A DNA stretch of 11,001 nucleotides, from IMG/VR virus record IMGVR_UViG_3300045988_029143, positions 1 to 11,001 of that record; one strand, given 5' to 3'. Source of the DNA: a virus. Shown one piece after another: positions 1 to 11,001 of the stretch. Each line of letters starts with the position of its first letter. Position 1 is the first letter of the stretch. A model generated the notes under the pieces. That model was not told where the DNA came from. It did no database searches and saw only the letters and a list, made by a program, of their open reading frames with translations. The translations under genes were made by a program, and so were the position numbers.

Positions 1-101
1 AAATATGCACAACGCCCCCATTTTTAACATTTCCCAACACATTTTTAACAGTAGCCAACATAGTTTGGCACGCTTTTTGCATAGGCCGTGCCAAACCTCC
101 A
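1..101. repeat. Left inverted terminal repeat (101 bp)
   Basis: Manual alignment: positions 1-101 equal the reverse complement of 10901-11001 except position 20 (A, versus C expected from G at 10982). Identity stops abruptly at 102. The repeat begins AAATATGCAC. Confidence 0.95.
66..81 (+). promoter_or_regulatory. sigma-54-like -24/-12 motif copy 1, inside the left ITR and pointing inward; alternatively an origin protein-binding site
   Basis: TGGCAC(66-71) GCTTT TTGCA(77-81) is an exact match to TGGCAC-N5-TTGCW. It is embedded in the 9-bp inverted repeat TTTGGCACG(64-72)-N14-CGTGCCAAA(87-95). Confidence 0.35.
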
Positions 102-107
102 CGAAGA

Positions 108-143
108 AATAAAAAAATAGCGTACCAAAAGAGTTGGCACGCT
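108..143 (-). terminator. Intrinsic terminator after the last (tail) gene
   Basis: The minus-strand RNA forms AGCGUGCCAA-CUCUU-UUGGUACGCU, a 10-bp stem with one G-U pair, followed by AUUUUUUUAUUU. It lies 15 nt downstream of the stop codon at 158-160. Confidence 0.7.
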
Positions 144-150
144 ATTTGCA
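135..150 (+). promoter_or_regulatory. sigma-54-like -24/-12 motif copy 2 (subterminal, outside the ITR, pointing inward)
   Basis: TGGCAC(135-140) GCTAT TTGCA(146-150) is an exact consensus match. The extended motif TTGGCACGCTATTTGCATAGG is shared with copy 1. It overlaps the terminator hairpin of the last gene and would fire antisense to it. Confidence 0.3.
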
Positions 151-157
151 TAGGTCG

Positions 158-1981
158 TTAATCTATAAAAACACCGCTCTGCAATAAATTAACAATTTCG
201 GTGTACTCGCTTTTCGGCACGTTGTCTATATCGTTATTTACAATCTCATCAAATTTGTAAAAACCCTTTGCACATTGCGAAAGTACAACTTTTTTATAGT
301 CATTGCCGCGTACATAGTTATACTCATTGGTGAAGTAATTCAGCCGCGCAAATGGCTCAAGGCCATATAAATTTTGTGCGTCCCACCTATCACTACCTAT
401 TACGGACGTGTCATAAGTAGTGTAAAGTATATCCGTATTAGGTTGTACGTTATGTAATTGTATGGGTAAATCGTTATTATCCAACAATTTACAAACCCCG
501 TCACCACTAATTACATTAATATCGTACACCAATTTTACAGATTTACCGACATAGTCAGAAGACAAACTAACGATACCAACGAACGGCAAAAATACCTCAA
601 TAAGCATATGTTTGTCAAGCGTTGTGTTATCTTTACGCGGTATTGTTATGCTGCCAAAATCAAGCGTTATTATATCCTTTTCGGGTAAATCTGCGTTTAT
701 CTCGGTGTCATAGTTACCGCATTTTATTCGGTCAGTGCCTTTTGTAGGTATGTGTGTATAAATACGCTTAATTCGGTTAACGTATTCGCTCAAATCTTGT
801 TCGTACGTAATAAATGTGCCGCTTTCAGTGAAGTACCTCTTTTTGCTAAAGGCTTCGAGGTTATCAAGCGTAACTACATACACATTGATAGCACCATAAT
901 TTTTAATACTTGGCTGCACCTCCACTTTCGCCCCTCCACGAAATTCGATGTACTCAGTTTTGGGACATTCGGCCGCAATATCAAGTGTAACGTTACCATG
1001 TTTGCCGTCTTCGCTAATCGTGAAACGTTTGTATTGTACACCTCCGAACTCGTCCGTATATCTTATTTCGGGTGGGTCTGTCTCGCTTGTAAACTTACTA
1101 CCCTCATTTGCTTGTATTGTAACGTTTACTTTGTCGGCCGCGGTGTAGTAGGTGGGTATATTTTCGGCCGTACAATTATACAAAGTATTTTTAACGGGTA
1201 TAGCCTTAATATAAGTACCATTAATAACCACGGACACAGAAGTATCTACATTTGTTAATGAGATATTTGCGGTGTCGCTGCTCTGTATGGTCATTGCATC
1301 AGTATGTGAAACACCGCCTGTATCTGTGTATGTAACGTTTGCCGCGGTTATAACATAGCCTCTTTTTGTACCCTTTAGTGTTACGTTGAAAGTACCATTA
1401 TCGTACGTATATGTGGCCGTTGTATCTGCTATGTTATTTGTTATGGTAATCGTTGGTGTACTCTCCGCAACCTCCCCGTTTAATGTAAAAGCACTATTTT
1501 TTGCGGCATCCTCTATGGTAAAAGTAGCCTTGCTTTTGTCCGTACTTATTACCCCGTCAACGCTTGACGTACCCCCGAAACTATCAATATAAACACATTT
1601 AGGTGCTGTGTTAAACTGATGCCCCGTATCAGCGGTAACTACAATGGTATGTACGCCACCGCTTACACTATATGTATAAGTAGTATTAGTTATATTATTT
1701 GTTATCGTTGGTTCTGCGGGGGCGTCGGGGTCGGCCTTAGTAGCCCCCGTTAAACGTATATTTGTGCCACTAACACCGCTAAAAGTACACGTTTTTAGGT
1801 CGGTAGATACTTTGCCCTTTATGCTGCTGCTCCCGAAATCATCATCAAAACGCGCTCGCGGTGTTGTCGCTGTATCAAACAAAAAACCCGTGTCCGCGGT
1901 ACTAACAATATTATAACCCCCTACACTCTCCGTGTATGTGAATGTAGTGTGTGGGATTTGGTTTGTTATTATATCTGCCAT
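158..1981 (-). CDS. Tail protein: four N-terminal tandem beta-rich repeats (about 88 aa each) fused to a phi29 gp9 tail-knob-like C-terminal region
   Basis: 607-aa ORF with an ATG start. Repeats begin ITNQIPHTTFTYT, ITNNITNTTYTYS and ITNNIADTTATYTY, sharing TADTG and DxFGG features. The C-terminal segments LPFVGIVSLSSDYVGKSVKLVY and NDIDNVPKSEYTEIVNLLQSGVFID resemble phi29 gp9 [22 protein letters not shown] and GDINNNDLQEIRTIFDNGITLW (from memory). Confidence 0.75.
   Translation of the reverse strand: MADIITNQIPHTTFTYTESVGGYNIVSTADTGFLFDTATTPRARFDDDFGSSSIKGKVSTDLKTCTFSGVSGTNIRLTGATKADPDAPAEPTITNNITNTTYTYSVSGGVHTIVVTADTGHQFNTAPKCVYIDSFGGTSSVDGVISTDKSKATFTIEDAAKNSAFTLNGEVAESTPTITITNNIADTTATYTYDNGTFNVTLKGTKRGYVITAANVTYTDTGGVSHTDAMTIQSSDTANISLTNVDTSVSVVINGTYIKAIPVKNTLYNCTAENIPTYYTAADKVNVTIQANEGSKFTSETDPPEIRYTDEFGGVQYKRFTISEDGKHGNVTLDIAAECPKTEYIEFRGGAKVEVQPSIKNYGAINVYVVTLDNLEAFSKKRYFTESGTFITYEQDLSEYVNRIKRIYTHIPTKGTDRIKCGNYDTEINADLPEKDIITLDFGSITIPRKDNTTLDKHMLIEVFLPFVGIVSLSSDYVGKSVKLVYDINVISGDGVCKLLDNNDLPIQLHNVQPNTDILYTTYDTSVIGSDRWDAQNLYGLEPFARLNYFTNEYNYVRGNDYKKVVLSQCAKGFYKFDEIVNNDIDNVPKSEYTEIVNLLQSGVFID
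917..1972 (-). repeat. Protein-level tandem repeats (4 units, aa 4-355 of the tail protein), probably Ig-like or adhesin-type modules
   Basis: Units 1 and 2 align along their whole length by eye. Units 3 and 4 are more diverged but keep the ITNN..TT.TY start and the YTD.(F)GG core. Confidence 0.7.
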
Positions 1982-1982
1982 A

Positions 1983-2423
1983 CTATTTATTACCTTTAAG
2001 TGTTACCATTATTATACTACCCTCTTTGTCAAATAGTTGTGAATTGGGAAAGTGCAAAATATCAGTTTTAGGGAAAACATTAAACACGTTACTATTTACT
2101 GACAAATTGCGGTTAGGGTTGTCGCTCTCCACTATTAACGCGGTGCTTTGCAAAATAACATCTTTGTAAGTCTGTAGTACATCAAGCGACAAAGTAAGTA
2201 AATACGTATTACCACCTATGTACCTAACGTTGTCAACAAAGTAATATTTTTGGAAATCCTCAATGTACACGTAATTAAACCCGTACATATTAGGTGGCAT
2301 TTGTATTTTTAGCGTTGGATTATGTACATTAAGTTCGGGGCGCAAAGCAACGTTAAGCGTGCCTAACGGGGTAAGTGCTTTGTTTATCGTGTTAGGTTGC
2401 CCCTTATAGTTATATATTATCAT
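1983..2423 (-). CDS. Tail knob N-terminal domain homolog (phi29 gp9 N-terminal-like), encoded as a separate 146-aa ORF
   Basis: FNYVYIEDFQKYYFVDNVRYIGGNTYLLTLSLDVLQTYKDVILQSTALIVES aligns with phi29 gp9 [57 protein letters not shown] (from memory). The TAG stop is followed one nucleotide later by the ATG of the next ORF. Confidence 0.7.
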   Translation of the reverse strand: MIIYNYKGQPNTINKALTPLGTLNVALRPELNVHNPTLKIQMPPNMYGFNYVYIEDFQKYYFVDNVRYIGGNTYLLTLSLDVLQTYKDVILQSTALIVESDNPNRNLSVNSNVFNVFPKTDILHFPNSQLFDKEGSIIMVTLKGNK

Positions 2424-2429
2424 AGTAGT

Positions 2430-2462
2430 AAAATAAAAAAGGTGGTGTTTATTACACCACCT
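2430..2462 (-). terminator. Intrinsic terminator after the major capsid gene
   Basis: The minus-strand RNA forms AGGUGGUGU-AAUAA-ACACCACCU, a perfect 9-bp stem (2440-2448 with 2454-2462), followed by UUUUUUAUUUU. It lies 21 nt after the MCP stop. Confidence 0.8.
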
Positions 2463-2482
2463 TGAGCCACAATATTAACTAA

Positions 2483-3655
2483 TTAAGCAACAAAGAAAAC
2501 TACAAAATTTTCGTTAGTATCGTTGAAGTAGCCAGCGTCAAACTTATAGTAGTTATTAAAGAACTCGGCCTTTGCGTTATAGTTAGTAGTTACGCGGCGG
2601 TTGAGGTTGCACACACCCAACGCATCGCGGTCAAACATAACACCTAAAACACCGCTAATGTCAACGGTTTTGCCGCCCGTCTCCTTAATGGTAATGTGTG
2701 CCGTACTTGCAAAATCGTACTTTGCACCGCTACCCTGCCAAAATGGTACACTTTCGGCATTCGGCAAAAGCACCTGTTCTTTGTTGTATGTATCGCTGTA
2801 CAAGTAAGCACGGGCCGCCTTTTCGAAGTCAGAGAGTAACACAACGTGTAAGTTTTCGCGAGGTGTAAAGCGTGGCTTACCTCCAATGTTAAATACACTT
2901 GAAATGCTCGCGAGTCTATCCGTGTACAAACCAATTGTGTAACTTGCAAACTTGATGAAATCGGGGTCTGTAAGTGCCTTTTCAGCGGTCAAAGTAGTGC
3001 TTTTGTTATCGTTGTACAACTTAAGCAAGTTAACGCAACGGGCGGTGCTACCTGTTTTGTAGTCTGTGCTACCATCACCACCAAAGGCCGCTCTGTCAGC
3101 TATCAAAGTTTGCGCTATCATGTTATTGATAGTACGCATAATTAACGCGTCCGTCTTAATGGTAATAGACTTTTCCACCGCGTTGTAAATCATAGACAAA
3201 AACGCGTTAAGTTGCTCAGCGTTAGAAAAACTATCTTTTACTTGACGCTCAGTGATAGACACGGGGACTTCGAAAGTTACGCGAGAATTGAAGAACTTTG
3301 CCGTAACTGTTGGCTTGTGAAATACATCTTGTGAGTATACCTCGCCGTCCGTTAGCTCCCAACTCTTATTCTCTTCGGCTTCGGGTAGGTCTGCGCTAAT
3401 CTTTTCGAGTACAGAGCCAAACTCCCAAGCGTCCATAAGTACAGAGGGAATTTTGCCTGCGTACGGGCGATTTACAAAAACCACCTTACCAATATGGTTA
3501 ACAAGTGATTTTACGTAATTGTCGACCGCGTTTTGGTTAAAGACCTCATTACCGAGGTCTACCAACCCCGTTAAATCATCGCTAACAAGTTCGGAGTTAC
3601 CTAAAACCTCTTTTGACACTGAATTTATCAGCGTGTAAATTTGTTTTACTTCCAT
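2483..3655 (-). CDS. Major capsid protein, phi29 gp8-like (HK97 fold expected)
   Basis: 390 aa. YVKSLVNHIGKVVF matches phi29 FITSLVDRIGLVVI, AFLSMIYNAVEKS matches SFVSSIINAIYNS, and the C-terminal NNYYKF...VVFFVA matches WNYYYHV...AVAFV (phi29 sequence from memory). It has its own upstream promoter-like motif and a downstream terminator. Confidence 0.88.
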   Translation of the reverse strand: MEVKQIYTLINSVSKEVLGNSELVSDDLTGLVDLGNEVFNQNAVDNYVKSLVNHIGKVVFVNRPYAGKIPSVLMDAWEFGSVLEKISADLPEAEENKSWELTDGEVYSQDVFHKPTVTAKFFNSRVTFEVPVSITERQVKDSFSNAEQLNAFLSMIYNAVEKSITIKTDALIMRTINNMIAQTLIADRAAFGGDGSTDYKTGSTARCVNLLKLYNDNKSTTLTAEKALTDPDFIKFASYTIGLYTDRLASISSVFNIGGKPRFTPRENLHVVLLSDFEKAARAYLYSDTYNKEQVLLPNAESVPFWQGSGAKYDFASTAHITIKETGGKTVDISGVLGVMFDRDALGVCNLNRRVTTNYNAKAEFFNNYYKFDAGYFNDTNENFVVFFVA

Positions 3656-3656
3656 T

Positions 3657-4226
3657 TTAATATATTAATTTGGTTATGTCATTTATAATTGCAAAAATAA
3701 TGCTTTTGCGCCAATTTTGCAAACTAAATTCAATTTCTTTTGTTAGTTCGTCCGTTGGTGACTTCGAGCCAAGACCTACAACCTTTTGTGTACTCGTGAC
3801 ATTGTTAGTACGTGTATTGTCGTACGTTGTACTATCTTTGTCATACTCCACAAAATCCGTTGCGTTGTATGGCTTGTTAGACGCTACATTTGTATTGTTA
3901 TTGTTGGCGTTTTCGGTGGTCTTATCCTCCCTCGTGGTTTGCTGCTGTACAGGGTTAAGTACATCATATTGGGCATTGTAGGCACTCGCCACGCGTACCC
4001 AATTACTAACACTCAACGCAATTATATTTTTAATGTATTCGTTTGCGTTGGTTTGTGTTATGGTGTTAATACACTCGCGCTCGCTGTAGTTGAGTAGTAC
4101 AAGCGTATCAAGTCCCACACTATCCATGTCACCAAATATTGCAGCGTATTCTGTGGGATAGTTAGGCTTAAATACCGCTGTAAATAGGCCGTGTTTAGGG
4201 TCGGGGTAAAGGTCAATTATCTTCAT
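3657..4226 (-). CDS. Hypothetical virion morphogenesis protein (scaffold or head-tail adaptor, by position only)
   Basis: 189-aa ORF between portal and capsid genes. It is the only gene with a strong SD (AAAGGAGGAAGAAA before the ATG). The centre is N/T/Q-rich and low complexity. I recognise no motif. Confidence 0.8.
   Translation of the reverse strand: MKIIDLYPDPKHGLFTAVFKPNYPTEYAAIFGDMDSVGLDTLVLLNYSERECINTITQTNANEYIKNIIALSVSNWVRVASAYNAQYDVLNPVQQQTTREDKTTENANNNNTNVASNKPYNATDFVEYDKDSTTYDNTRTNNVTSTQKVVGLGSKSPTDELTKEIEFSLQNWRKSIIFAIINDITKLIY
3692..3723 (-). promoter_or_regulatory. Bacteroides-type promoter (-33 TTTG, -7 TAnnTTTG) upstream of the capsid gene
   Basis: The minus strand reads TTTG(3723-3720)-20 nt-TATTTTTG(3699-3692). 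The -7 box ends 36 nt upstream of the MCP ATG at 3655. The motif lies inside the 3' end of the preceding gene. Confidence 0.5.
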
Positions 4227-4242
4227 TTTCTTCCTCCTTTTC

Positions 4243-5235
4243 TTAGTCCGTTTCGTTTTCCGTTTCGGTCTCCGTTTCGGTCTCTGTTTCGGTTTCCGTT
4301 ACTTCCTTTTCTTCCTGTTCAGCAACGCTTTCGCCAATAGTAGAAGTATTATCTTTATTATCTTCATTTTCTGTTTCTGTTTTGGTTTCGTCCTTGCGTA
4401 TCGCCCAACTACTTGCAAGTTCCACACTAATTCCAGTGCCAAACATAGCGTTTATTTTTTCCACCGCCTTTTTGCGCTCTTGTAGCATATTGTCTACATA
4501 CGGGTTGAGGGCATCTACATTCATTTGCACCTCACTTGTATTCAGTCGCTCGCGCTTTAGGTTGTAGTTGGCGTTTAGGCCAATTTCGTTAAACGCAGAC
4601 GCTTTGAAATATTGAAGTAATTCAATGAGTTGCGTTATTTGGTTCGCGCTCTGCGTGGAAATGCTTTGCAAGTTCACGCCCTTAAAAAATGCGTTTTCGC
4701 CTATTACGGAAAAATCTCCTTGCAAAATCTTTGTTATAAAATCGTCCGCGCTTTGTTTGGTCTTGTCATCGCTCGCACTTATTAACATGGTGATACGAGA
4801 GAGTACAGAGCAAGTATTGAGCGACAAAAGCGTATCACTACACAAAACGCCATATTTGCCGAAAATCGGCAAAAGGCTATTTGCGCCACTATCATTTTTA
4901 ATCAATACCCCCTCCACGTCTATTTTGTACGACTTGTTTAGGTTTAGGTATGGGTTACTTACAATGTATTCGGTCGCTTCGTTGTACGCGTTGGGGACAC
5001 CTCCAAGGCCGCCAGTAAAAGCATATATTTTGCCGTCTACCTCAGTTACAAAAACATTGCCGTTGGTCTGTAGTAGGTTTTCCAAATTGTTTTGGGGTAA
5101 CGTTTCGGGCAGACCTTTGTACTCAAACATTGCTTGTGTTATGGCTAACATTTTGCGTATGTAACCTTTTACACTTTTGTCTTTATTTTTTATTTCCTCT
5201 TGATACTTCAAGTACAAGTTATCTTTCTTTGCCAT
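4243..5235 (-). CDS. Portal / upper collar connector protein, phi29 gp10-like
   Basis: 330 aa. [25 protein letters not shown] matches phi29 [48 protein letters not shown] matches [21 protein letters not shown], and [10 protein letters not shown] matches ACEKINELYG (from memory). The C-terminal tail is acidic. Confidence 0.88.
   Translation of the reverse strand: [330 protein letters not shown]
4247..4306 (-). repeat. 12-nt tandem repeat (about 5 units) encoding the (Thr-Glu)n tail of the portal
   Basis: Plus-strand units are tccgtttcgttt, tccgtttcggtc, tccgtttcggtc, tctgtttcggtt and tccgttacttcc. They translate on the minus strand to [20 protein letters not shown]. Confidence 0.9.
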
Positions 5236-5425
5236 TTGTCAATGTTTTTATAAGTGTGCTTAACTCGCTCAAAACTCGGGTGTTATCCTCCAAAGTAGTG
5301 CGTAAATTGTCGGTTTCTTCCTTGTGCTGCTCATCGTGTTTTGTCATGTAGTAAAATACAATTAAGCACATCGCAATCGGAAAGCCTACGTTTGAAATCA
5401 TTTGTGTAACTTGTGTAATATCCAT
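5219..5425 (-). CDS. Small single-pass membrane protein (YvrJ-like; holin candidate)
   Basis: 68 aa. The N-terminal hydrophobic segment SNVGFPIAMCLIVFYY is followed by a charged helical tail. The NVGFPI motif recalls the YvrJ small-protein family (from memory). It overlaps the portal gene by 17 nt. Confidence 0.65.
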   Translation of the reverse strand: MDITQVTQMISNVGFPIAMCLIVFYYMTKHDEQHKEETDNLRTTLEDNTRVLSELSTLIKTLTNGKER

Positions 5426-5449
5426 TTTGTAAGGTGTTATTAATTACTG

Positions 5450-5481
5450 CAAATATACGAAAGTTATTTTATACTTACAAT
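5450..5481 (-). promoter_or_regulatory. Possible Bacteroides-type promoter for the structural gene block (good -7 box, imperfect -33)
   Basis: The minus strand reads ATTG(5481-5478)-20 nt-TATATTTG(5457-5450). The -7 box ends 24 nt upstream of the ATG at 5425, in the only intergenic gap between the ATPase and the late genes. Confidence 0.3.
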
Positions 5482-6594
5482 GTTGGTCTTTGCCGAAGTC
5501 ATTAAATAATTTCGCACAATTTCGCCAACCTCATTATTTTGGTAAAATACTTTGTCCGTGGCAAAATACCGCGCTACTTGACTCTCTAAATACGTCGCAC
5601 TACTTATTAATTTGCGCTTGTAGTTTGGTTTCCCGTTCATCGTTAGGCTGTATATTAGTGAGTTTTCGGGGTCTTTTATTGGGGTAGTCTTCATGTGAAT
5701 GTATGTAAAATTTTCGCCCCCGTGCTGTATTATGTTGCCTTGCAAAATATATTCGTTGAATACAATGTAATACACAAAAAGCACGTCATTTGGTTTGTAC
5801 TTCGTTGGCAAATGTGGATAGGCGGCCATTTCCCATTTGCCGCCCGTTATCATTTCCAAATTTTGATTATCAAAACAAAAGTACTTATTACTTGCTTTTT
5901 GTTTAACAATGGTACTGCAATACTCCACCGCTACCACCGCGCCATGTTGCCCAAACTTGTATATGTCAATAGTGCCTTGCTCCATGTTAGTTACTTGCTT
6001 TAGGCCCATTTCCGTGAAGTAAGGGCAAAACTTATTTATTGTGTTGCCCAACATAAATACTTTTACGTTGTCGCGCTGTCGTATTATGGTACTTAAAAGG
6101 TTCATATACAACATGAACTCATCGGGTAGGTAGTACCTACGAGTTAAAAACTCATCAAAAACGATTGTTGTAACGTTGGGGTAACTGCTACTTTTTTCAT
6201 GCTCTTGTTCTGACAGACAAAAGCCATAGCAAAAGGGTGTAGTTTGCGGTACGTACTTCTTTTTTTCGGGGTCATATTTTGCAAGATACCATTTGCCACC
6301 GATATAAAATACCGCGTTAAACTCCCCCTTTGTTATTTCTTCTATGTACCCGTTGGCCACGTGGTTAGTAAATAGATTTTCTGCACGTTTGCCGCGTAAA
6401 TCCTCGCGCCACCTACGTATATAGGCCATTTGTTCGCCCGTCTGTAAATAGCGTTTAATTCCATACGCTAAAGTAGCGTATGTTTTGCCATTCGAACGCT
6501 CGCCAAATATTATGTTATAATCAGCCTTTTTGTTTAGGATATTGGCGAGGGAGTAAAATTTTATCGTTTCTTTCTTATTTGTTTCTTTCTTCAT
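5464..6594 (-). CDS. DNA packaging (encapsidation) ATPase, phi29 gp16-like
   Basis: 376 aa. Walker A is GERSNGKT (nt 6481-6504) and Walker B-like is TTIVFDEF. Size and single-subunit organisation are typical of protein-primed podophage packaging ATPases. Confidence 0.8.
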   Translation of the reverse strand: MKKETNKKETIKFYSLANILNKKADYNIIFGERSNGKTYATLAYGIKRYLQTGEQMAYIRRWREDLRGKRAENLFTNHVANGYIEEITKGEFNAVFYIGGKWYLAKYDPEKKKYVPQTTPFCYGFCLSEQEHEKSSSYPNVTTIVFDEFLTRRYYLPDEFMLYMNLLSTIIRQRDNVKVFMLGNTINKFCPYFTEMGLKQVTNMEQGTIDIYKFGQHGAVVAVEYCSTIVKQKASNKYFCFDNQNLEMITGGKWEMAAYPHLPTKYKPNDVLFVYYIVFNEYILQGNIIQHGGENFTYIHMKTTPIKDPENSLIYSLTMNGKPNYKRKLISSATYLESQVARYFATDKVFYQNNEVGEIVRNYLMTSAKTNIVSIK

Positions 6595-6597
6595 TGT

Positions 6598-8784
6598 TCA
6601 ATCTTTTAGTTTTATGCCTTTTAGATAATTTAGATACATCACACTTAAAGATAAATTATAACTTGTTGGCTCTAAGTGTACACCCGTATTCTCTGCAAAT
6701 GTACACTTTTTACCCGTGTAGTCGGTTACTTCACCCGTTATTTTGTAGTCTATGTATGTATGTATGTTTTTGCCCGTGGCTTCACACGGAAATTCGAGAT
6801 AATTGGTAAAGGCGTTAAATATGTTATCACCATACTTTTTAACAAGGTAGGGTATTGCAGCCTTTTTGTTTACACCGCTTATTGTTAGGCTGTACTCATA
6901 ACTTTTGCCGCCTACGTTTAGGGCGTTTTCTTCCTGCACAATGTACCTCTTTGCGCCCAACGTCTTAAAACGTTTGTACGTCCCTTCATAGTCCCAAACG
7001 CCTAAAGTTTTAGTAACTCCCTTAATGGTTTCGGGTTCGCATTTGGCAAAGTCTATGTTATGATGTTTACACGCGGCCTTTAGTTTGTTATATACTACAT
7101 TGTTGTACATATCAAAATACCGCTTGTGCGCTGCTGCGTTTCTTAGTTTAATGCTGTCAGTATCGCTGTATATGTAATCTTGCTTTGCTTCGTAGATTGC
7201 GGTAAATAAATTGCGCCTTGCATACGCGGTAACAAAAACACCCCACGGATAAAACAAAAAGCGGTTTTTACTTTCGTTGTACTTCTGTAACATCTCGGCC
7301 TTTTCGCTGTCTGTCAATGTATTCTCGTCCCATTTGCCATTATATACAAATTCATCACGCAAAGGGTTAGTAACACACATACCATAGCACGAGTTTAGCA
7401 TTTCCTTGCTATTTAGGTACTCCACTTCCTTTCCTTGCACGCCTTTTAATTTGGTTTTGTTTTCGTACAAATCTAAGATTGTACGTACAAAATCAGTTGG
7501 CAAATAGTCGGCCTTATAGCAATACATTGCACCGATACGGACACCGCCCCACGTGTAAAATTTGCGTATTATGTTGTAGTCTATGTTTGTTATTGTCGTG
7601 GCTACTTTTGCAGCACAAACAAGCCGGCCGTTATTCTCCACGTGGTCTATCTTGACATAGCATTTGCTTACACTTATAGGGTTATCCTGCAACTCTTTAG
7701 CAAAGATGTTGGCAAATTCAATGTCAAATATGCAAAGGTACTTACTTATGTAGTATTCAAATTCTTGCATATTTCGGGGGTGCACTCGTACCCCCTTAGA
7801 CATAGGGAATTTTTCAGACACCATAACATACGGGTAACTGCTCGTAAAATCGTAACTTGCAACGTCTTCACAAATTTCGTCTATGTGGTTTGCGTTGCCG
7901 TGAGTAAATCCACCGCTAAAAGCCCTTTGCAGCATATTAAATTCATGCAACCCCGAAATAGTTAGCGAGTGGATTAAATTAATACACTCCCAATTACGAG
8001 CGGTTTTGCCGTTTACCTTTTTACTTAACATTGCTTTGCGGCAATGTTTACGCACGTACCCCGTTTTGGTTAGAGGCAAACGCGTTATTAACTTGTTTTG
8101 CTCTAATTGCTCTTGTATGTAGTTCATAACCACTTTTATATCATTCGCGCAGTAAAGCAACTCTTTCGGGGTTAGTTCGGTCTGCACGTGTCGTATTAGG
8201 GTATAGTCTAAATCTCCAACCATTTTTGCACACTTGTATGTTTGTAGTTGCTCGCCTAACTTTGCAAGGTTGTAGCCGCTTAACAAGTAGCTGCATCTAA
8301 ATTCTATGCCTAACGTTGTGGTTGCATATAGGGGCTTGCGCAAATCAATGCTAAAAACTTTCTCCCATTCAAACAGAGTACGCAAAAACTGAAATTCGTA
8401 GGATAAATTGTGTATATATACGATTAGTTTTTTGTTATTGGATAACTCCAATGTTTGTGCTATCGTGTTACACATTGTTACAAACTCGTCCCATGTACGG
8501 CCTACTATTACGTACCCATTTATACCAAATTGCCACACGTACATAATAGCACATTTTTCCATTTTTACACCTATCTTGTTGTATTGTTCGTAAGTGTATG
8601 TGTTGCCGTCTTCGTCTCGGTAAAAACTACTTACCTCAATGTCAAAGGCGCAAGGGACGTTGTAAAATTTACACCCCTTATTGTTGCCTATTACGTTTTT
8701 GTCATTTACGGCCAACTCCAAAATTTTTTGTATGTCGGTGGTCTTATATATACCGCTGTGCTGTTCATATTGCACCTTTTTCAT
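6598..8784 (-). CDS. Family B DNA polymerase, protein-primed type
   Basis: 728 aa. Exo I is FDIEV (D48, E50). Exo II is HNLSYEF. Exo III is YCANDIKV. Motif A is YDFTSSYP. Motif B is KEMLNSCYG. A TPR2-like insert lies before GVFVTAYARR. Motif C is YSDTDS (nt 7153-7170, verified by back-translation). KxY is AKRY. Confidence 0.95.
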   Translation of the reverse strand: MKKVQYEQHSGIYKTTDIQKILELAVNDKNVIGNNKGCKFYNVPCAFDIEVSSFYRDEDGNTYTYEQYNKIGVKMEKCAIMYVWQFGINGYVIVGRTWDEFVTMCNTIAQTLELSNNKKLIVYIHNLSYEFQFLRTLFEWEKVFSIDLRKPLYATTTLGIEFRCSYLLSGYNLAKLGEQLQTYKCAKMVGDLDYTLIRHVQTELTPKELLYCANDIKVVMNYIQEQLEQNKLITRLPLTKTGYVRKHCRKAMLSKKVNGKTARNWECINLIHSLTISGLHEFNMLQRAFSGGFTHGNANHIDEICEDVASYDFTSSYPYVMVSEKFPMSKGVRVHPRNMQEFEYYISKYLCIFDIEFANIFAKELQDNPISVSKCYVKIDHVENNGRLVCAAKVATTITNIDYNIIRKFYTWGGVRIGAMYCYKADYLPTDFVRTILDLYENKTKLKGVQGKEVEYLNSKEMLNSCYGMCVTNPLRDEFVYNGKWDENTLTDSEKAEMLQKYNESKNRFLFYPWGVFVTAYARRNLFTAIYEAKQDYIYSDTDSIKLRNAAAHKRYFDMYNNVVYNKLKAACKHHNIDFAKCEPETIKGVTKTLGVWDYEGTYKRFKTLGAKRYIVQEENALNVGGKSYEYSLTISGVNKKAAIPYLVKKYGDNIFNAFTNYLEFPCEATGKNIHTYIDYKITGEVTDYTGKKCTFAENTGVHLEPTSYNLSLSVMYLNYLKGIKLKD

Positions 8785-9419
8785 AGTCCGAAATTATTAA
8801 ACACGTCTAATATGCTCTGTATCTCGCTTTCTACTTCGTTAGTTAGTTTGTTAGCTTCACTTTCGATATTGCTATCTATCGCGTTTTGTAGGCTTACGGC
8901 TTCACTTTCAATTTGTTCGCTCGCGTCTCGTGCGCTTTGCTCCAAATCGCCCGTGAAGTCTTTATACTTCATGAGGTATTTTTCAACAAAATCGCTATCG
9001 CTTAAACTTGTTAGCTTTTCGTTTAACTTATCGGCCATTAAATTAAATTCTTTGTCAGTAAGGCCGTAGGCGGTTTTTAGGTGTTCGTTGTATGTACGCG
9101 TGCCTTGGGCGGTACTCGTAGGCTGACGCAAAAAAGACACGGCTTTCGCGTACTCTGTTTTAATTTCGTCCCAACTTTGGCCGCTCACAGAAAATTTGCT
9201 ATATCCTTTTATATCTCCTTTGTTTAAGGCTGTTACCGCAGGACTTAATAAACCTTTGTCTTCAATGTTTTGTATGCGTCTATTTGCTTGTTGGAATACG
9301 CGCCTTACTTCCTTTCTTAGTTCGGGACTGCTCTCAACGCTTTGTATAATATCTTGGCGTAATTCGGTGCGCTGCGTTGCTGTAAATACGCTTTGCTTGT
9401 ATCCTATCTTGTTAGGCAT
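8781..9419 (-). CDS. Candidate terminal protein (replication primer)
   Basis: 212-aa ORF immediately upstream of the polymerase gene, overlapping it by ATGA (8781-8784). This TP-then-pol synteny occurs in phi29, PRD1 and Bam35. The N-terminus is basic and the C-terminus is an acidic coiled region. I can verify no sequence motif. Confidence 0.5.
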   Translation of the reverse strand: MPNKIGYKQSVFTATQRTELRQDIIQSVESSPELRKEVRRVFQQANRRIQNIEDKGLLSPAVTALNKGDIKGYSKFSVSGQSWDEIKTEYAKAVSFLRQPTSTAQGTRTYNEHLKTAYGLTDKEFNLMADKLNEKLTSLSDSDFVEKYLMKYKDFTGDLEQSARDASEQIESEAVSLQNAIDSNIESEANKLTNEVESEIQSILDVFNNFGL

Positions 9420-9425
9420 AGCTGT

Positions 9426-9463
9426 AAAATTAAAATAGGTAGGTAGTTATATGCTACCTACCT
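9426..9463 (-). terminator. Intrinsic terminator or attenuator between the early small genes and the TP-polymerase genes
   Basis: A perfect 10-bp stem AGGTAGGTAG(9437-9446)/CTACCTACCT(9454-9463) has a 7-nt loop. On the minus strand it is followed by AUUUUAAUUUU, immediately before the ATG at 9419. Confidence 0.65.
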
Positions 9464-9477
9464 AATTGTGTTACTTG

Positions 9478-9831
9478 TTAGATGTCCTTAAAACTAATAG
9501 TGTGGCAGTTGCGGCCGTGGCTCTCGTACTTTCGTACTACAAAACCTACTTTGCCTTTTTTGATGTCTTCCACTGCGTTAGCATTGTTTACAATGTCATT
9601 AAACACCTTAGTTAGGTATATAGGCATATCAATGCGCTTTTTAACGTCAGACATCACCACCACGACTTTAACGCCAAATTTGCCGCGTGTGAAGTAGAAC
9701 CCATTTAACGCGTGTACCGCGTCGGGGTTAGTGTTGTATAACTCTTTAAGGCTTGTAAATTCGTAGCCTTTCAAATCAAACTTAAAGGGGTTTTCATTGC
9801 CCTTATTGTACTTTTCTGCAAAACTTGTCAT
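9478..9831 (-). CDS. Hypothetical early protein (candidate DNA-binding protein or SSB, by size and position only)
   Basis: 117-aa ORF with an ATG start. It is predicted beta-rich (GKFGVKVVVVM, GKVGFVVRKY). It occupies the position held by the SSB/DBP genes upstream of TP in phi29. Confidence 0.75.
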   Translation of the reverse strand: MTSFAEKYNKGNENPFKFDLKGYEFTSLKELYNTNPDAVHALNGFYFTRGKFGVKVVVVMSDVKKRIDMPIYLTKVFNDIVNNANAVEDIKKGKVGFVVRKYESHGRNCHTISFKDI

Positions 9832-9842
9832 AACTCAAAGCG

Positions 9843-10013
9843 TTAATTGTTAGCTGTATGTTCGTTGCCTAATGTAATCAGGAAATTTCTAAACTTCGAG
9901 ATTTTTAGAAGTGTGCGAGTACTCGCGTTAACTTCCTTGGTGGTCATAAGTTGGCCGAGGGCGTTTGTAGCGGTAAATATCGCTTCATCAAACGCATTTC
10001 TTTCTTCGTTCAT
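9843..10013 (-). CDS. Hypothetical 56-aa early protein (absent from the supplied ORF track)
   Basis: Hand translation gives MNEERNAFDEAIFTATNALGQLMTTKEVNASTRTLLKISKFRNFLITLGNEHTANN. Its ATG (10013-10011) overlaps the TGA (10012-10010) of the upstream gene as ATGA. It fills an otherwise unexplained 178-nt gap. The plus-strand ORF 9847..10047 is its shadow. Confidence 0.6.
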   Translation of the reverse strand: MNEERNAFDEAIFTATNALGQLMTTKEVNASTRTLLKISKFRNFLITLGNEHTANN

Positions 10014-10219
10014 TTCTTTTGGTATTTTAGTAGTGTGTTGTGATTGATGTACGTTGTGTCGGTTGTGACAATGGTAGCCTTTCCGTTAACGTCTGTTTGC
10101 TTGTACATTGAGCAACTTTGCAGGGCCATGCATAGGCCGTAAAGCACAGAGACCAAAACAAGCACGTAAGAGATACAAAAAAGTAATGTACCCACGCTTT
10201 TTAAAATTTTCTTTTTCAT
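10010..10219 (-). CDS. Small secreted, membrane or lipoprotein-like early protein
   Basis: 69 aa. A basic N-terminus (MKKKILK) precedes a hydrophobic segment, then ALQSC, a loose lipobox-like site before Cys. The C-terminus is polar. Confidence 0.65.
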   Translation of the reverse strand: MKKKILKSVGTLLFCISYVLVLVSVLYGLCMALQSCSMYKQTDVNGKATIVTTDTTYINHNTLLKYQKK

Positions 10220-10234
10220 TTTAATTGTTGGTTA

Positions 10235-10279
10235 ATGTTCCACGTGAAACAATTTTGTTTTGTTCCACGTGAAACAATT
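10235..10279. promoter_or_regulatory. Two copies of an operator-like near-palindrome (TGTTCCACGTGAAACAATT), 25 bp apart
   Basis: A perfect 19-bp direct repeat occurs at 10236-10254 and 10261-10279. Each contains TTGTTC-CACGTG-AAACAA (18-bp palindrome, with one mismatched pair in copy 2 and two in copy 1). It lies in the 63-nt gap between two early genes. Confidence 0.5.
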
Positions 10280-10282
10280 ATT

Positions 10283-10567
10283 TCACTTATTGTTATCTTG
10301 TGTGTATTCTCTAAACTTGTCGAGCAAACCATTTTCAAGGATAAACATATACGCTTCGTTTTTTAGGTTCATTTCAACACGTTTCGAGTTTTCGAGTTCT
10401 TGAATGTCTTTACCTATGTTCTGAGCAAATGCCGCTAAGTTGCTAAGAGTGGCGCAAACGCTTCTGAGTAGTTCAGAGTCGGTGCGCTTTGCTTCAAAAT
10501 GCACGTTTGTGCAAGTAGTTTGCAAGATTGTTGCAAGTTCGGTGTAAAGTTGAGACTTCGTTGCCAT
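10283..10567 (-). CDS. Hypothetical early protein (94 aa, helical)
   Basis: The track ORF 10283..10591 starts at a GTG inside a GC-rich hairpin. The first ATG (10567) gives MATKSQLYTEL... and I prefer it. No recognisable motif. Confidence 0.7.
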   Translation of the reverse strand: MATKSQLYTELATILQTTCTNVHFEAKRTDSELLRSVCATLSNLAAFAQNIGKDIQELENSKRVEMNLKNEAYMFILENGLLDKFREYTQDNNK

Positions 10568-10584
10568 TGTATTTTTGTTTGGTT

Positions 10585-10605
10585 GCCCCACTGGTTAGGT
10601 GGGGC
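10585..10605. other. GC-rich stem-loop GCCCCAC-N7-GTGGGGC just upstream of the first sizeable gene
   Basis: Perfect 7-bp stem with a 7-nt loop. On the minus strand it is followed by an A-rich tract, so it is not a classical terminator. On the plus strand it is followed by GTTACCTTTT. Confidence 0.5.
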
Positions 10606-10613
10606 GTTACCTT

Positions 10614-10721
10614 TTAAAGGTTAGCTAACGTTTTGCCAAGTGTGCGCAAATTGTTTTTAGCTATTCGCTTTGCTGTTTCGCTCTTTGCGTTTTTCAAATC
10701 CTCAAAATTATCATTGAGCAT
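10614..10721 (-). CDS. Possible 35-aa micro-ORF (could instead be part of a non-coding RNA)
   Basis: Hand translation gives MLNDNFEDLKNAKSETAKRIAKNNLRTLGKTLANL. It has an ATG start and TAA stop, lies downstream of the promoter-like motif at 10768-10799, and has no SD. It is too short to judge coding potential. Confidence 0.25.
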   Translation of the reverse strand: MLNDNFEDLKNAKSETAKRIAKNNLRTLGKTLANL

Positions 10722-10767
10722 TTTTAAGCATTTCTAAATCTTTCATTTGTTATTTATTTTGATATTG

Positions 10768-10799
10768 CAAAGGTAGTAACTTTGTGTACTTAATGCAAA
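10768..10799 (-). promoter_or_regulatory. Bacteroides-type promoter (-33 TTTG, -7 TAnnTTTG) at the right end, facing the early genes
   Basis: The minus strand reads TTTG(10799-10796)-20 nt-TACCTTTG(10775-10768). It sits in an AT-rich non-coding region upstream of all genes. Confidence 0.5.
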
Positions 10800-10847
10800 T
10801 TTTTAGTATTAAAATATCTTAAAAGATTATTTTTTGTTTCGTTGCTA

Positions 10848-10863
10848 TGCGAATAGCGTGCCA
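10848..10863 (-). promoter_or_regulatory. sigma-54-like -24/-12 motif copy 3 (subterminal at the right end, pointing inward, same direction as the genes)
   Basis: The minus strand reads TGGCAC GCTAT TCGCA. The GG and GC dinucleotides keep correct spacing, with one mismatch in the -12 box. Its distance from the right end (139 nt) is similar to that of copy 2 from the left end (135 nt). Confidence 0.3.
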
Positions 10864-10900
10864 AAAATCGCTTTTCGTAGGTGCTTTTTTCTTGTGATTT

Positions 10901-11001
10901 TGGAGGTTTGGCACGGCCTATGCAAAAAGCGTGCCAAACTATGTTGGCTACTGTTAAAAATGTGTTGGGAAATGTTAAAAAGGGGGGCGTTGTGCATATT
11001 T
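10901..11001. repeat. Right inverted terminal repeat (101 bp)
   Basis: Reverse complement of 1-101 with 100/101 identity. The single difference lies in a C5A versus C6 run. Confidence 0.95.
10921..10936 (-). promoter_or_regulatory. sigma-54-like -24/-12 motif copy 4, inside the right ITR and pointing inward toward the genes
   Basis: The minus strand reads TGGCACGCTTTTTGCA, the mirror of copy 1. It is oriented with all minus-strand genes. Confidence 0.35.

Follow-up and report, generated by a model that had tools for sequence, protein, structure and literature searches.

Does a tail knob gene that is divided by a stop codon represent a damaged gene, a gene rejoined by frameshifting, or a knob built from two separate chains? 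This question is raised by IMG/VR virus record IMGVR_UViG_3300045988_029143, of which positions 1 to 11,001 were analyzed (the whole of this 11,001-nucleotide stretch is the window referred to below). Here a 146-amino-acid (aa) open reading frame (ORF), ORF1, resembles the N-terminal domain of gp9, the phi29 tail knob protein, and is followed almost immediately by ORF2, a 607-aa reading frame that opens with four immunoglobulin (Ig)-like repeats. We propose that ORF1 and ORF2 each specify one chain of a two-chain, composite tail knob in a phi29-like podovirus, and we place the probability of this reading at roughly 0.78. Knobs made of two proteins and bearing Ig-like domains in varying number were already published in 2024 (Pourcel et al., as relayed by the review PMC11476376), and the window is therefore a further example of an architecture that is not new in its basic form. 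What the present analysis adds is incremental: the size of the family, the insertion point revealed by the unsplit protein P0303, three re-fusions, the length classes of ORF2, and a gradient of divergence along its repeats.

Two adjoining reading frames and the knob N-terminal domain

The original prediction, made from the sequence alone, described a gp9-like knob encoded as two reading frames with a repeat module at their junction, a description that gained support from the matches of ORF1, the collinearity with P0303, and the homology to Salmonella phage astrithr presented below. Its coordinates and junction (a 146-aa frame, TAG, one nucleotide, ATG, and a 607-aa frame) are exactly as it described them. 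The features of the locus are as follows.

1983..2423, minus strand: ORF1, 146 aa, assigned from the reading frame call and its knob matches as the minor N-terminal part of the knob
158..1981, minus strand: ORF2, 607 aa, four repeats followed by a C-terminal domain
1979..1997, minus strand: junction, with a Shine-Dalgarno (SD)-like AAAGG at 1997..1993, TAG at 1985..1983, T at 1982, and ATG at 1981..1979
908..1981, minus strand: ORF2 aa 1-358, four tandem Ig-like/FN3-like beta-sandwich repeats
1709-1981, minus strand: repeat R1
1454-1708, minus strand: repeat R2
1196-1453, minus strand: repeat R3
908-1195, minus strand: repeat R4
158..907, minus strand: ORF2 aa 359-607 plus stop, the conserved C-terminal "major" knob domain

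Ahead of its ATG, the ORF2 frame stays open for seven codons (21 nucleotides [nt]) and is closed by a TAA before them, in agreement with the predicted closure 24 nt upstream. Because the ORF1 stop and the ORF2 start are only 1 nt apart, translation of the two frames is probably coupled, an arrangement suggested by the sequence that would favor equimolar synthesis.

The likeness of ORF1 to the phi29 knob's N-terminal domain, including its DVLQT(Y/W) block, was recovered by profile searches, Foldseek, and hhalign alike. A profile of the ORF1 family retrieved only two PDB entries at E <= 10, namely 4eo2 (C1 gp12, residues 50-151, E 0.08) and 5fb4 (phi29 gp9, residues 90-129, E 0.14). ORF1 also matched two PHROG families, phrog_2248 (the gp9 family and the best match, E 0.0012) and phrog_16615, on which phi29 gp9 itself scores 1e-196 and 8e-18, respectively. 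Direct alignment of ORF1 with phi29 gp9 by hhalign gave an E-value of 2.3e-4, and a broader ORF1 profile aligned with a 121-sequence gp9 family at 3.6e-5 (ORF1 45-90 with gp9 71-121). At the center of the family alignment YYFV...DVLQTY is set against YAFV...DVLQTW; the block spans ORF1 aa 60-86, and its DVLQTY (aa 81-86) falls on DVLQTW of phi29 gp9 (aa 111-116).

The AlphaFold2 model of ORF1 is confident over residues 1-95 (predicted local distance difference test [pLDDT] 85-94) and falls below 50 for most of residues 104-130. When this model was compared with the PDB by Foldseek, ranks 1 to 7 were all knobs (C1 gp12, phi29 gp9, and Andhra), with probabilities of 0.60-0.99 and E-values of 0.03-0.12 over these top seven; the best match for each knob (4eo2, 5fb5, and 8egs) reached a probability of 0.96-0.99. 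ORF1 thus has the N-terminal tail-tube-like fold and the YxFV...DVLQT(W/Y) block that gp9, C1 gp12, and the Andhra knob share. Its assignment as a knob domain is credible because its top matches are exclusively knobs and lie in a consistent position. Single-sequence phmmer searches of the PDB with ORF1 and with ORF2 returned no match.

The chain break and the proposed partner chains

P0303 is an unsplit protein of 387 aa that carries no Ig-like repeats and is encoded at positions 3135-4298 of contig L083, directly after a Phi29_MCP gene. Residues 4-142 of P0303 aligned with ORF1 1-145 (probability 99.8%, E 7e-29), and residues 140-387 aligned with ORF2 361-607 (probability 99.5%, E 5e-23), the latter using an ORF2 C-terminal profile that had been built without P0303. 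Independent BLASTP comparisons of P0303 with ORF1 and ORF2 gave E-values of 3e-23 and 1e-10. The two alignments abut, with no linker between the parts. Since P0303 is collinear with ORF1 plus ORF2 361-607, the stop, the start, and the four repeats of the window lie at one insertion point, between the last strand of ORF1 (...SIIMVTLKGN) and the strand NYGAINVYVVTL, the first conserved segment of the ORF2 core. Unlike the window, P0303 has neither the stop nor the Ig-like domains, and it shows the knob core as it stands without the insertion.

In-frame fusions of ORF1 and ORF2 were found in one subclade, in contigs L017, L025, L027, L050, and L041 (where the fused frame runs from ~3983 to ~5812-5848) and in protein P0241. 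They fall into three different deletion breakpoints, each of which removed the stop together with one to two repeats. The three re-fusions are independent, and fusion arises by deletion and not by frame restoration. Covalent linkage is therefore tolerated across the Ig array, which argues that the ORF1 and ORF2 chains are neighbors in the assembly.

The stop itself is widely conserved. A search for ORF1 homologs found 208 at E <= 0.01, and we examined the best 120 of these. With identities down to 39%, all 120 were 146-164 aa long except for one 105-aa fragment (P0043), and the homologs stop at one shared position, after an invariant C-terminal M..T.KG. Searching 1.84 billion representative proteins with the ORF1 profile identified 8,298 relatives at E <= 1e-3, and short proteins (108-176 aa) made up 146 of the 150 best of these. 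A separate protein, P0291 (325 aa), joins an ORF1-like N terminus (aa 22-134) to unrelated hydrophobic sequence and probably results from a gene call that is chimeric or frameshifted. We also surveyed the junction in 80 related IMG/VR loci, nearly all of them on contigs of ~10.4-12.7 kb. To the question of whether homologs are single reading frames, which the original prediction had raised, the answer is divided: the stop is retained in 75 of the 80 loci, a few carry the fusions described above, and P0303 is unsplit.

One could suspect that the stop reflects faulty sequencing or assembly, or a mutation that recently inactivated what should be a single gene of ~750 aa, given that the ORF1 stop and the ORF2 start are separated by one nucleotide and that a few relatives have a single fused frame. 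The stop recurs, however, at one and the same point of the protein in the 120 homologs examined (the one fragment aside), and it is kept by 75 of 80 independent viral contigs; isolated, sequenced Salmonella phages have it as well. The fused forms, moreover, come from deletions of the stop plus one to two repeats and not from a restored frame. Because the stop is conserved across homologs, contigs, and the isolated phage astrithr, we rule out a sequencing error or a pseudogene, the chance of either being negligible.

A programmed +1 frameshift (e.g., at AAA-TAG-T) or a bypass of the stop might instead produce a fused knob, either in addition to the two chains or in their place; the original prediction had pointed to the short open stretch before the ORF2 start as the only site for a +1 event. 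That frame is indeed open for 21 nt ahead of the ATG, covalent fusion is tolerated in some relatives, and the AAA in the P site before the stop and the SD-like AAAGG upstream loosely recall +1 shift sites such as those of the prfB type. Across the 80 loci, however, the spacing runs from an overlap of 41 nt to a gap of 11 nt (-41 to +11), and relative to ORF1 the ORF2 frame may be 0, +1, or +2. Neither frame, spacing, nor local sequence is conserved even in the closest clade (ORF1 88-93% identical), where six loci have a stop-N-ATG arrangement (e.g., TAG-T-ATG in L003) and L007 has a TAATG junction and hence a different frame. In every case ORF2 starts from an ATG of its own, which often has an SD-like sequence (AAAGG, AAGGA, AAAGGA, or AAGAG) within a few nucleotides upstream. 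With frames and spacing varying in this way among relatives, a conserved frameshift is very unlikely, and the proposal of fusion by this route was not borne out.

Conservation in the family peaks in the C-terminal domain of ORF2, with a mean identity to the window of 94% in 55 close relatives (ORF1, 90%) and 43% in distant relatives. The original prediction had likened the final 250 aa of ORF2 to gp9 in its central and C-terminal parts. This likeness was not reproduced by Pfam, by PDB profile searches, or by hhalign, and it rests on published HHpred results for orthologs, in which the C terminus of the major part resembles gp9 (PMC11476376). The ORF2-family profile gave only chance matches in the PDB, and Foldseek matches of full-length ORF2 to the PDB are dominated by Ig/FN3 domains. 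The sole gp9 signal comes from a C-terminal motif of 21 residues (EYTEIVNLLQSGVF against DLQEIRTIFDNGIT, E 0.089, in a comparison restricted to the last ~80-95 residues), and this sequence resemblance is suggestive only. P0379, a single chain of 523 aa, did not serve as a link to gp9, since both of its alignments were too weak (N-terminal part with gp9 8-185, E 0.009; C-terminal 65 residues with the ORF2 tail, E 0.034).

Several results weigh against the composite knob. ORF1 falls below the gathering score of the Pfam family Caud_tail_N (PF16838) and has no Pfam match at E <= 0.1; only 1 of 120 ORF1 family members matches Caud_tail_N (E 0.0079), compared with 3.7e-60 for phi29 gp9 itself. At the database level, the E-values linking ORF1 to knobs are marginal (0.03-0.14). 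ORF2 has no Pfam match, including to phi29_gp9_C (PF20934), and hhalign comparisons of its C-terminal domain with gp9 or the 121-sequence gp9 family are not significant (E 0.24-0.5). The AlphaFold2 monomer of this domain has a pLDDT of 40-85, too low for a fold comparison with gp9, although low confidence is expected when a domain folds together with a partner chain in an oligomer.

An alternative is that no composite knob exists and that the two products are functionally independent, ORF1 as a tube, stopper, or adaptor ring and ORF2 as a fiber-like receptor-binding protein. At lower Foldseek ranks the ORF1 fold does also resemble the SaPI1 neck, the lambda neck, and the R4C stopper, and the absence of a significant gp9 match for the ORF2 C-terminal domain fits the same idea. 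Independent function is hard to reconcile with P0303, in which both parts form one polypeptide without a linker, with the three independent in-frame fusions, or with AlphaFold 3 (AF3) models of orthologs, in which the chains share inter-chain beta-sheets (PMC11476376). The low confidence of the C-terminal 50 aa of ORF1 and of the start of the ORF2 core is likewise what would be expected if these segments fold only in a complex. We consider independent products improbable and retain the composite knob.

In the published two-protein knobs, the knob is a hexamer whose unit consists of two proteins, the minor of which resembles the gp9 N terminus (PMC11476376). The known examples are Salmonella Astrid/astrithr gp09 + gp10, Pectobacterium DU_PP_III, Acinetobacter Aci01-2-Phanie gp9 + gp10, and metagenome-assembled genome (MAG) 2692_55609; AF3 12-mer models of Astrid and DU_PP_III show the inter-chain beta-sheets together with lateral Ig-like domains, and the split has been proposed to go back to the ancestor of the lineage that infects Gram-negative hosts (PMC11476376). 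In astrithr, gp09 (146 aa, 7500-7940) and gp10 (568 aa, from 7941) directly follow the capsid gene. ORF1 matches gp09, the minor part, by hhalign (probability 99%, E 3e-18) and by tblastn (~36% identity over 64% of ORF1, 2e-9), and the C-terminal part of ORF2 aligns with gp10 272-567 over 278 columns (probability 97%, E 1e-10). A Foldseek search of BFVD with ORF2 gave a 642-aa protein as the best match (2e-27) and also found the 568-aa Astrid protein A0A3G8F2C2 (E 9e-22).

Like the window, Astrithrvirus-like phages have the order capsid, 146-aa minor part, and major part, with adjacent stop and start, and in both the major part has N-terminal Ig-like domains, in varying number, ahead of a conserved C-terminal domain. 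ORF2 therefore has all the traits of a major part of the Astrithrvirus/Phanie type, namely an Ig-like N terminus, a conserved C-terminal domain, and a gene that abuts that of the minor part. The window differs in belonging to another clade, drawn from gut metagenomes, in having four Ig-like repeats where six are reported for Phanie in the account relayed by the review, and in lacking an endolysin gene after ORF2, where astrithr has endolysin gp11 after gp10.

The phi29-type knobs (phi29 gp9, 5FB4/5FB5; C1 gp12, 4EO2; Andhra, 8EGS) are more distant. As in the window, their genes follow the capsid module, and they have in common with ORF1 the tube-like N-terminal fold and the Y-x-F-V...D-V-L-Q-T-(W/Y) block. 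They are, however, single polypeptides of ~490-600 aa without an Ig-like array, whereas the window has two reading frames and an array, and over the central and C-terminal 450 aa no similarity is detectable. The window, with its two frames, thus departs from the phi29 type, which is marked by a single polypeptide, a hexameric tube, and a membrane-penetrating loop.

In the composite knob that we propose, ORF1 would supply the N-terminal tail-tube-fold domain as a collar-proximal ring, and ORF2 aa 359-607 would form the distal knob domain, preceded by the four Ig-like domains of aa 1-358. The SIIMVTLKGN strand and the NYGAINVYVVTL segment, which are adjacent in P0303, may form a beta-hairpin, whose turn would then hold both the chain break and the Ig array. 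The two chains would be made separately from one transcript, probably in a coupled manner, and would re-associate by strand pairing into a putative 6 + 6 ring, from which six Ig arrays would project laterally at the tail tip. The original prediction had offered a two-chain knob and a knob with its own binding array as alternatives; both appear to be true, and they do not exclude each other.

The Ig-like array and its possible targets

The four tandem beta-rich repeats of about 88 aa that had been predicted are well supported. Their bounds in ORF2 are aa 1-91 (R1), 92-176 (R2), 177-262 (R3), and 263-358 (R4), or 85-96 aa each. Local alignments of repeat pairs exceeded those of shuffled sequences with z values of 3.2-18.1, the observed score being reached by 0 to 4 of 300 shuffles, and AlphaFold2 modeled every repeat as all-beta with a pLDDT of ~90. 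Foldseek of the full ORF2 model gave 52 PDB matches at E <= 1e-3; the 50 of these listed are mostly tandem Ig/FN3/MG-type domains and include adhesin extender regions, fibronectin, and the FN3 domains of the lambda tail tip (8k35 and 8iyk). The repeats are thus tandem beta-sandwiches of the Ig-like/FN3 kind, although none of the Pfam Ig, Big, or FN3 families was matched by ORF2. Tandem Repeats Finder detected no tandem repeat in the window at the DNA level, and the duplications that gave rise to the repeats must therefore be old. As in the FN3 domains of lambda gpJ, tandem beta-sandwiches are found here on a tail-tip protein; unlike that type of decoration, the ORF2 array forms the N terminus of a chain that starts inside the knob fold.

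The repeats diverge unequally. In the 55 close relatives, mean identity to the window rises from 48% in R1 to 63% in R2, 83% in R3, and 86% in R4, a sequence gradient of the kind that would be expected if the distal repeats carry specificity. R1 and R2 are the fastest-evolving part of the ORF1-ORF2 pair, and many relatives have unalignable sequence in place of R1. ORF2 falls into length classes of ~525, 610, 692, 786, and 880 aa, which are consistent with a variable number of repeats, from three to seven; the number was judged from length, as counting with a hidden Markov model missed divergent repeats in the homologs.

Family searches of the Pfam/PHROG type detected no fiber, appendage, endolysin, or tail-associated lysin gene in the window, in line with the predicted absence of appendage and tail fiber genes. 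With no fiber or appendage gene present and evolution fastest in the outermost repeats, the leading candidate for a target-recognition module is the Ig array, and it would bind a target in this putative role. Ig-like and FN3 domains of tails are generally thought to confer weak carbohydrate adhesion (PMC11476376). We favor a glycan of the host surface as the target of the array, with the tail of a helper phage being less likely.

The second kind of target has a precedent. Phanie, which has the same two-protein knob, in its case with six Ig-like domains, is a satellite: its capsids can infect only while they are fixed to the contractile tail of its helper myophage Aci01-1, according to the account given in the review (PMC11476376). 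By analogy, the array in the window might be a docking module for the contractile tail of an unrelated helper phage and not a binder of host receptors, and the lack of detected fiber and endolysin genes would fit such a life. Salmonella phage Astrid, however, has the same architecture and is described as a non-satellite (bioRxiv 10.1101/2025.06.18.659913), and rapid divergence of the distal repeats suits either kind of target. A docking function is accordingly unlikely in our view. We are equally doubtful that the abundant gut clade of ~11-kb genomes as a whole consists of tail-hijacking satellites like Phanie, with distal repeats that dock on the tails of specific helpers; if it does, repeat number and swaps of R1/R2 would track helper specificity.

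Genome setting and wider meaning

The 11,001-bp window is a complete linear phage genome, bounded by inverted terminal repeats of ~101 nt with 1 mismatch (1-101 and 10901-11001). Its long genes are all on the minus strand, and the gene set is phi29-like. Beyond the knob genes, the features are as follows.

8784..6598, minus strand: protein-primed type-B DNA polymerase
6594..5464, minus strand: gp16-type packaging ATPase
5425..5219, minus strand: holin, 68 aa (phrog_4898, E 5e-11)
5235..4243, minus strand: portal/upper collar
3657-4226, minus strand: 189-aa reading frame between the portal and capsid genes, without a family match
3655..2483, minus strand: Phi29_MCP capsid protein
2439..2463, minus strand: terminator-like hairpin and T-run, between the capsid stop (2483) and the ORF1 start
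115..147, minus strand: terminator-like hairpin (14 pairs) and T-run, just past the ORF2 stop, where the late operon ends

A 95%-identical relative comes from a gut metagenome, and megablast of the whole window against the INPHARED phages gave no match. The exact ORF2 protein of the window was looked up in the assemblies, with no record returned. At 11,001 bp, this genome is smaller than the 11.6 kb quoted for the smallest isolated tailed phage (bioRxiv 10.1101/2025.06.18.659913). The 189-aa reading frame occupies the same gene position as astrithr gp07. Phi29-like phages that infect Gram-negative hosts have a shortened lower collar (PMC11476376), and from their position both the 189-aa frame and gp07 may be that protein.

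Strong terminator-like hairpins flank the ORF1-ORF2 pair on both sides. The one at 2439..2463 is a putative attenuator that may lower transcription and expression of the knob relative to the capsid protein. A sigma-54-like motif, TGGCAC-N5-TTGCA, occurs in six copies with at most 1 mismatch, compared with 0.24 expected by chance, and all six lie within ~150 nt of the genome ends (66-93, 135-150, 10848-10863, and 10909-10936). A palindrome, TTTGGCACG...CGTGCCAAA, includes part of this motif, which could be a candidate origin, a recognition element for the terminal protein, or a promoter. The Bacteroides-type promoter pattern TTTG-N18-22-TAnnTTTG is present in 3 copies against 0.69 expected (3 copies were reached in 5 of 200 shuffles). 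Two copies are on the coding strand, one at 10768-10799 (minus) before the early genes and one at 3692-3723 (minus) just before the capsid ATG. This pattern is a weak hint of a Bacteroidota host, such as has also been guessed for the fecal MAG 2692_55609 (PMC11476376).

Taken with its relatives, the window indicates that the two-chain, Ig-decorated knob is not confined to a few isolates from Proteobacteria. The minor-part profile alone finds 8,298 cluster representatives at E <= 1e-3. Among the smallest tailed phages known, a very large group, for the most part uncultured, has the two-chain knob as its standard tail tip. P0303 and the three re-fusions pinpoint the place at which a chain break and an insertion can be accommodated by the knob fold, knowledge that aids both structural modeling and the engineering of minimal phages. 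In genomes that lack fibers, the Ig array is the obvious place in which to seek specificity for a host or a helper.

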